64,000 bases of DNA from Candidatus Latescibacterota bacterium (GTDB lineage: Bacteria > Latescibacterota > UBA2968 > GCA-2709665), in the NCBI GenBank assembly GCA_963662665.2, contig CAXXJS010000050.1, positions 26,259-90,258 on the forward strand, written 5' to 3'. Under the pieces are notes generated by a model. The model saw only the letters and a list, made by a program, of their open reading frames with translations, was not told the DNA's origin and made no database searches. Within the stretch, counting starts at the first letter, position 1, and the number at the start of each line of letters is the position of its first letter. A program made the position numbers and the translations under genes. Shown piece by piece: positions 56,012 through 56,639 of the stretch.

Positions 56012-56045
56012 CCTATCCTGTCTATCCTGTTGATCCATGTTCCCC
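56012..56045 (+). repeat. short interspersed repeat overlapping the 3' end of the AhpD-like ORF
   Basis: CCTATCCTGTCTATCCTGTTGATCCATGTTCCCC. Confidence 0.7.
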
Positions 56046-56639
56046 GTTTTTCTGTTTTTCCCACGCTTTCGTGAAGGACTCGGGCTCAACGCCCAGCGCA
56101 TCGGCCACGCGGTTGATATAGTTGAAATAGCCGATGATCTGGACCGCGTCGTGGATGGCGCGGTCGTCCAAGCCGTGCTCGCGCAGCCGGTCGACGTCCG
56201 CGTCCGTTGAAGCACGTGGGTCCAGGCTGAGCTTTTCGGCGAAGGCGCATAGCGCGCGGTCGGCGGGGGAGAGGGGGGCTTGGCGCCAGTCCGAGGCCAG
56301 CTGATGTACCAGCCGGTCGGCTTCTTCGCCATCCTCAACGTCGAACTCTCCGGCGACCTCGGCACGGAGGTCGTGGGCGTGCGCGCGCATTCAGTATACG
56401 CAGTGGTTCACGGCCGAGACGACCACGGCGAGCATCTCCCGCCGCGCGCGGCTGAGGGGGGAGGGGCCGTGCATCAACGTGCCGTAGAAATCCAGCGAAG
56501 CCTTCATGGCGGGGGGGTTGGGGCTCATGATGGAGACGATGCCCCAGATCCGCCCTGTCCGTTTCATCGCCGCGTCATATAGCCGCTTCAACAGGCCGGT
56601 GGCCTTTTCTGGAGGAATAACATCGATATAAGGCATCAA
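56022..56639 (-). CDS. AhpD-like / carboxymuconolactone decarboxylase family peroxidase-related protein with in-frame TGA (candidate selenocysteine), or a pseudogene
   Basis: ORFs 56391..56639 and 56022..56390 are contiguous in one frame, separated only by TGA (56393-56391). Read-through gives ..VSAVNHCVY-U-MRAHAHDL.., which is the family motif NxCxYCxxxH with TGA in place of the second Cys. A hairpin lies 17 nt downstream. Confidence 0.6.

Follow-up and report, generated by a model that had tools for sequence, protein, structure and literature searches.

The 64-kb window analyzed here (64,000 nucleotides from a Candidatus Latescibacterota bacterium, positions 26,259 to 90,258 of contig CAXXJS010000050.1, assembly GCA_963662665.2) carries on its minus strand a gene for an AhpD-like protein whose codon 82 is an in-frame UGA. 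Judging from sequence, this UGA is very probably decoded as selenocysteine (Sec, U) in conjunction with a bacterial selenocysteine insertion sequence (SECIS) hairpin downstream of it, and the gene is very probably a working one. An earlier note on this DNA had proposed that two listed open reading frames (ORFs) on the minus strand are a single frame broken only by the TGA at 56393-56391, and the coordinates matched base by base. The frame runs from TTG 56639 or ATG 56636 to TAG 56024-56022, and the TGA, in the context AVNHCVY-TGA-MRAHAHDLRAEV, is its sole internal stop. Additional frameshifts, which the earlier note had named as a possible sign of gene decay, were looked for, and the window copy contains neither a frameshift nor any further stop codon. 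We prefer ATG 56636 as the start because orthologues begin with MPW or MPY. The features of the frame are as follows.

56022 to 56636, minus strand: complete AhpD-like (TIGR01926) gene, a predicted selenoprotein of 204 codons including Sec82; start ATG at 56636, alternative TTG at 56639, stop TAG at 56024-56022.
56391 to 56393, minus strand: in-frame UGA, read here as selenocysteine codon 82, replacing the second Cys of CxxC (C-V-Y-U).
56644 to 56650, minus strand: Shine-Dalgarno-like AAGGGGG, 7 nt 5′ of ATG 56636.

We scored the protein against family profiles with Cys substituted at the TGA codon. The assignment to the CMD/AhpD family made in the earlier note held: Pfam CMD matched at 7e-13, and TIGR01926 ('peroxidase-related enzyme') gave 136.7 bits against a cutoff of 81.8, with query residues 4-187 aligned to positions 2-176 of the 178-position profile. 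The domain profile TIGR00778 (ahpD_dom) was also above its cutoff over residues 61-93 (42.4 bits vs 27.8). Two related profiles were not reached, TIGR00777 for AhpD proper of the Mycobacterium tuberculosis type (24.7 bits vs 191.95) and NF041238, AhpD_rel_CFYUT (64.8 bits vs 175, matching only positions 216-344 of 357), and the window protein therefore belongs to neither. It likewise scored below the cutoff of NF053654, a longer selenoprotein family.

The catalytic residues lie in one short segment around the UGA.

56379 to 56438, minus strand: active-site helix-turn-helix segment with Glu67 (56438-56436), Cys79 (56402-56400), Tyr81, Sec82 and His86 (56381-56379).

Read from the sequence, the core motif is E67-X11-C79-V-Y81-U82-X3-H86, the Sec form of the AhpD motif E-X11-C-X2-C-X3-H. 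The UGA had been predicted to sit where the redox Cys is expected, giving CxxU, and it does: every alignment to a PDB homologue with Cys (6K40, 2OYO, 2PFX) places the TGA at the second Cys of N-x-C-x-Y-C. Among solved structures the best match is the AhpD-like protein DR1765 of Deinococcus radiodurans (6K40, E 1.3e-29), in which NRCVYC aligns to NHCVYU of the window protein. Sec/Cys pairing is also seen among database homologues, U82 standing opposite the second Cys of CxxC in P0017, P0026, P0057, P0072 and P0092. The residues of the window motif correspond one-to-one with the proton-relay residues of Pseudomonas aeruginosa PA0269 (Glu36/Cys48/Tyr50/Cys51/His55) and of M. tuberculosis AhpD (Glu118/Cys130/His132/Cys133/His137) (PMC3141380).

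The UGA is conserved far beyond the window. An orthologue scan using one genome per species returned 80 loci from 80 species, which belong to at least six phyla (Chloroflexota, Gemmatimonadota, Latescibacterota, Planctomycetota, Calditrichota, Actinomycetota and others); the Chloroflexota orthologues come from Anaerolineae, Caldilineae, Ardenticatenales and Roseiflexaceae. All 80 loci carry TGA at the homologous codon and keep the frame on both sides of it, and TGA is also found at this codon in two further loci, L084 and L081, the latter being the nearest DNA relative of the window gene. Close relatives with TGC or TGT and no hairpin, a finding that the earlier note had said would speak against selenocysteine, did not appear: the closest relatives all have TGA, and Cys forms occur only further off. 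In those the hairpin fades, as a relic in the nearest Cys relative (L206), decayed in a further one (L205) and absent from a Salinibacter CxxC homologue (L207), which is what one would expect of a hairpin that matters only in combination with UGA. A scan of the window for other ORFs bridged by TGA yielded 204 candidates, which amount to noise at 60% GC, and the redox motif was present in none but the AhpD-like gene.

The hairpin had been described from the single sequence as a perfect stem 17 nt after the UGA with GU in its loop; it is present there, and it is conserved with covariation.

56354 to 56373, minus strand: predicted bacterial SECIS hairpin; stem 56373-56367 with 56360-56354, apical loop CGUGCC at 56366-56361, G-U at loop positions 2-3.

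This perfect 7-bp hairpin, CGACCUC-CGUGCC-GAGGUCG, begins 17 nt past the UGA and in isolation has a minimum free energy (MFE) of -10.5 kcal/mol. Published criteria for bacterial SECIS elements are a loop of 3-9 nt, a stem of 4-16 bp, a G at loop position 1 or 2 with G or U after it, a UGA-to-loop distance of 16-37 nt and an MFE of -7.5 kcal/mol or lower (PMC13188914). The window hairpin lies within every one of these limits, with a 6-nt loop that starts C-G-U, a stem of 7 bp, the MFE given above and a UGA-to-loop distance of 24 nt, so that the earlier statement on spacing is also correct. Searching the whole window at Rfam gathering thresholds returned a group II intron only and no family over the hairpin, and a permissive E-value search of 53.6-57.1 kb found nothing. 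Because no Rfam family matched, we tested the hairpin by comparative analysis.

RNAalifold, run on 44 aligned sequences, independently gave exactly the 7-bp hairpin and nothing else. In the orthologue alignment 98.4% of hairpin cells form standard pairs, and three of the seven pairs (33-52, 36-49 and 37-48) show compensatory double changes. These can be followed at the codon level, where the pair Asp GAC/Val GUC has changed to GAU/Ile AUC, and Leu CUC/Glu GAG to Phe UUC/GAA. Neither the observed covariation score nor the observed percentage paired was reached in any of 500 shuffles, and pairing fell to 22-44% when the 3′ partner was shifted by 1-3 columns. Codon choice within the hairpin is also frozen: in 79 of 79 cases Leu is encoded by CTC (29% elsewhere in the same genes), the Val codon is never GTG (39% elsewhere), the loop Arg codon is CGT or CGG and never CGC (42% elsewhere), and GAA occurs in the hairpin only with its pairing partner TTC. 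Such frozen synonymous sites mean that selection acts here on the RNA, not on the protein.

One orthologue departs from this pattern. P0012 has AGA (Arg) at the Sec codon and an intact SECIS hairpin (GACCTCCGGGCTGAGGTC), and was found in two independent assemblies (L082, 3001-3582, and L083, 638-1219). It would seem either to have lost Sec recently or to be an inactive variant.

Several observations weigh against selenocysteine decoding or against a functional gene. The folding energy of the GC-rich 60-nt context is ordinary compared with shuffles of this single sequence (z = -0.23), and for that reason a single sequence alone proves nothing. We detected no tRNA-Sec with ARAGORN or Rfam in the 64-kb window or in any fetched locus, and Pfam scans of 40 of the larger ORFs of the window, including all of the size of selA, selB or selD, identified none of these three genes. 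A sigma-70-type promoter was looked for upstream of the AhpD-like gene and none was detected. The island around the gene is variable, low in GC and rich in repeats, and a repeat arm has reshaped the C-terminus of this copy. In L081, the nearest DNA relative, there are several frameshifts, which may indicate decay; they are probably sequencing errors, given that its coverage is 2x. In the literature we found no experimental test of a Sec-containing member of the AhpD-like family and nothing useful on selenocysteine in Latescibacteria.

Some of these points would suit a nonsense-mutated pseudogene, the alternative that the earlier note itself had raised, in which the island is decaying, a Cys codon (TGC or TGT) has turned into TGA and the hairpin is there by coincidence. 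The island is ridden with repeats and low in GC, toxin-antitoxin genes adjoin, the frameshifts are those of the closest DNA relative, and the hairpin is statistically ordinary when a single sequence is considered. A decaying Cys gene does not, however, explain why 80 of 80 species share TGA at this codon and keep the frame intact before and after it, why the hairpin shows compensatory changes and fixed synonymous codons, or why the window copy is free of any other stop or frameshift. The pseudogene is thus strongly disfavoured, and we regard it as very improbable.

Equally improbable in our estimate are two small genes with products of 81 and 122 aa, for which the TGA would be a true stop followed by a coupled restart at TGAATG. 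The window does have ATG directly after the TGA, and in routine gene calling the downstream half is entered as a protein of its own. Public collections contain the family mostly in mis-annotated form; in the database survey (proteins P0001-P0120), dozens of homologues are fragments of 112-124 aa that begin exactly after the TGA (MRAHAHDLRAEV...). The ATG, however, is found in one of 81 sequences, that of the window, the others having ACG, ATT, ATA, ACA, AGA, CGG and other codons at this position, so re-initiation cannot account for the downstream half. Moreover, no Shine-Dalgarno sequence precedes the TGA, and a split would part the two redox residues of E-X11-C-X2-C-X3-H.

Least likely, to the point of being nearly negligible, is a reassigned code in which TGA means Trp or Gly (code 4 or 25): other database homologues are called at full length and show W or G at the Sec site, presumably from translating TGA under code 4 or 25, but the only such call that we checked at the DNA level, P0001 (W), has TGA there and its locus does not give the database protein under the standard bacterial code, which makes its W a translation-table artefact, TGA is the ordinary stop of 11 of the 21 window genes with full-length Pfam support, so the code is not reassigned, and a conserved downstream hairpin would have no role.

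Selenocysteine at codon 82 also agrees with what is known of the family. AhpD-like proteins with CxxU were reported as a new selenoprotein family in the 2005 Sargasso Sea survey by Zhang and colleagues (27 sequences, COG2128; PMC1088965), AhpD-like 1 was the fourth most abundant family in their 2008 GOS survey with 299 sequences (PMC2398784), and a 2026 AEM review tabulates 'AhpD-like protein, TIGR01926, CxxU' (PMC13188914). The statement in the earlier note that AhpD-like proteins are among the recognised prokaryotic selenoprotein families is therefore accurate. The window gene is very probably a plain, unannotated member of this family (TIGR01926/COG2128, CxxU). It shares with AhpD-like 1 a TIGR01926 score above cutoff, C-x-x-U with Sec at the second Cys and a bacterial SECIS directly 3′ of the UGA, and it differs in nothing essential; the window copy is Latescibacterota-like, has a repeat-derived C-terminal tail of 10 residues and has inverted-repeat arms in its flanks. 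The affiliation of the source comes from GAPDH: one database protein is 100% identical to it, and its named relatives, at 68-74% identity, are Ca. Latescibacteria.

Other known systems are less close. NF041238, the 'hypothetical protein 1' of the Sargasso Sea survey, likewise has an AhpD-type domain with C-x-Y-U, and many orthologues of the window gene read CFYUT, but its 357-position profile includes an extra N-terminal region and the window protein is not a member. DR1765 (6K40) and the TIGR01926 structures 2OYO, 2PFX, 3C1L and 2PRR are the closest solved relatives (E 1e-29 to 1e-17), aligning over the full length and sharing the NxCxYC..H helix; they have Cys instead of Sec, and the SECIS-encoding HDLRAEV segment is missing from them. 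Loss of DR1765 renders cells sensitive to H2O2, and its CxxC cysteines matter (PMC8945050). M. tuberculosis AhpD (TIGR00777) has the two-helix catalytic motif and the proton relay and offers a mechanistic model, namely re-reduction of AhpC with lipoamide as reductant, but it is a non-orthologue with another chain topology and very low identity, and the window gene has no ahpC neighbour. As to the RNA, the bSECISearch consensus and the SECIS of Escherichia coli fdhF are likewise coding-region stem-loops with a UGA-to-loop distance of 16-37 nt and a small apical loop starting with G then G or U. The fdhF element has no sequence similarity to that of the window family, whose stem is set by Asp-Leu...Glu-Val codons.

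For the route from the UGA to a working enzyme, and thus for actual Sec insertion in the Latescibacterota source organism, the partner proteins and the substrate, we infer the following from related systems. As in established bacterial SECIS biology, the hairpin would recruit SelB-GTP and Sec-tRNA(Sec) while the UGA is in the A site, U82 would be inserted, and translation would run on for 122 further codons. Sec82 and Cys79 would then make up a redox centre of the C-x-x-U type, located where the second of the two helices of the conserved AhpD motif begins. By analogy with AhpD biochemistry (PMC3141380, PMC8945050), this centre most likely alternates between selenol/thiol and selenenylsulfide, and Glu67, Tyr81 and His86 would act with a water molecule as a proton relay. 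The enzyme may be a weak direct peroxidase or, more likely, the reductase of a partner peroxidase, as AhpD is for AhpC, and our best guess for its reductant is a lipoyl protein or thioredoxin. In M. tuberculosis AhpD the second Cys (Cys133) is the attacking nucleophile, which would fit the placement of Sec at the second Cys position.

The Cys relatives L205 (1-870) and L206 (1-882) each have a gene start 4 nt past the preceding gene, and the gene preceding L205 encodes a 2-oxoacid dehydrogenase E2 (lipoyl) acyltransferase. This neighbour hints at lipoyl-E2 as the physiological reductant, as for M. tuberculosis AhpD. Among the 80 orthologous loci we found no conserved neighbourhood and nothing in common with the window, and since conserved neighbours are absent, operon context offers no clue to function.

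The AhpD-like gene is located in a 3.2-kb island at about 53.7-56.9 kb, in which GC falls to 0.50 compared with about 0.60 for the window. The island is bordered by lptE (56948-57445) and by a 423-aa ORF of no assigned function, and copies of an inverted-repeat element stand between its genes.

56677 to 56693, minus strand: upstream repeat arm B (ATCCTGTCCATCCATGT), reverse complement of the downstream arm; homology to L081 starts here.
56015 to 56045, minus strand: downstream repeat arm A (GGGGAACATGGATCAACAGGATAGACAGGAT), which supplies the last 7 codons and the stop of the AhpD-like gene; homology to L081 ends here.
53760 to 56934: repeat arms at 53970-53995, 54839-54864, 55355-55380, 55495-55513, 55655-55715, 56015-56045, 56677-56693 and 56859-56934.

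Each arm consists of three hexamers at 9-nt spacing (ACATGGAT-N3-CAGGAT-N3-CAGGAT); arm A has the pattern GGGRAACATGGAT-N3-CAGGAT-N3-CAGGAT, and arm B is its reverse complement. About eight final codons of the gene had been attributed to an interspersed repeat, and the final 7 codons together with the stop (GGG GAA CAT GGA TCA ACA GGA TAG, 56045-56022) do lie inside arm A, of which further copies occur at 53970-53995, 54839-54864, 55655-55715 and 56859-56934. The exact 20-base arm pattern is present in at least 120 metagenome contigs (GC 0.33-0.70) and in only 9 viral contigs. Its usual form is an A...B element of 62-212 bp, sometimes in tandem, 3′ of ordinary genes or between convergent genes. 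The element matched no Rfam family, and no integrase or transposase was found among the flanking ORFs examined.

L081 (ENA ERZ25067264, contig ctg630177, 1-10933) carries the AhpD-Sec gene at 85% nucleotide identity with TGA and hairpin intact. Its homology to the window is confined to the gene and the two arms, beginning in arm B and ending in arm A, and its flanks are unrelated to those of the window, with a CBASS-like SMODS/patatin cluster, a SEC-C protein, a type I restriction-modification system and a DDE transposase. Because homology stops at the arms and the flanks are unrelated, the gene appears to move as a repeat-bounded cassette. It is possible, though on balance doubtful, that in a Latescibacterota-like lineage the Sec-AhpD gene is carried as passenger by a small mobile cassette whose boundaries belong to an inverted-repeat family that is apparently undescribed.

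As to the nature of the repeats, the idea that they are strict RNA or single-stranded DNA hairpins is weakened by the 3-nt spacers between hexamers, which are mostly non-complementary, and by a flank complementarity barely above that of shuffled pairs (4.96 vs 4.28 of 10). With such spacers, protein-bound terminal inverted repeats resembling miniature inverted-repeat transposable elements (MITEs) fit better than a strict hairpin. We also lean against integron attC sites and a gene cassette of that kind. The small genes of the window are co-oriented and parted by inverted-repeat elements, and some copies end in AATTAAC...GTTAATT, as an integron would have it, but no integrase was found, three hexamers at 9-nt spacing are not attC architecture, and elsewhere the elements stand between convergent housekeeping genes.

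Two further observations concern the repeats. A PDDEXK_3 (GxxExxY) nuclease-family gene is the sole recurrent neighbour, at 5 of 128 flanking ORFs plus one in L081 (933-1313), and in these cases (L117, 2703-3176; four other metagenome loci; L081) the start codon is preceded by arm B at a distance of about 15 nt. Such genes may be partners or passengers of the element; we found nothing useful on GxxExxY in the literature. In addition, a sigma-70-like promoter match on the minus strand at 56024-55995 (TAGACA, an 18-nt spacer and TATGAT, 10 of 12 positions) has its -35 inside arm A and is directed at the downstream HicB-like gene, and TTATAAT precedes several arm B copies, suggesting that the repeats may carry promoter elements.

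The remaining small genes of the island are co-oriented on the minus strand (54042-55904) and include a Phd-like antitoxin (54422-54781), a PIN/VapC toxin (54042-54425) and two HicB/UPF0150-like genes (55136-55327 and 55722-55904). Beyond the island, a DsbA-like thioredoxin-fold protein with a CSWC motif is encoded at 58134-58787, 1.5 kb upstream of the selenoprotein gene, and adjoins genes for subunits of a molybdenum hydroxylase of the xanthine dehydrogenase family (MoCoBD, FAD-binding; 59541-62838). The group II intron matches RF02003 (D1-D4) at 30260-30397 of the window with 89.7 bits (E 2e-18) and is unrelated to the selenoprotein gene.

Knowledge of the AhpD-like family as such is unchanged by the window gene, and the flanking repeat family is the only part that is possibly new. 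If the cassette reading is true, the gene would be a self-contained recoding unit, with UGA and SECIS in cis, that is shuffled between genomes, which would help to explain near-identical SECIS elements across six phyla. The set of orthologues from 80 species is a clean natural example of a SECIS constraining both protein sequence and codon choice, the hairpin being encoded by His-Asp-Leu-Arg-x-Glu-Val, and among its members are also a natural variant in which Arg replaces Sec and variants with Cys in place of Sec and relic hairpins. With standard gene callers the AhpD-like selenoprotein gene comes out split or truncated; once its UGA is read as Sec, the complete redox enzyme is recovered, and the Latescibacterota source organism can be counted as a probable user of selenocysteine.

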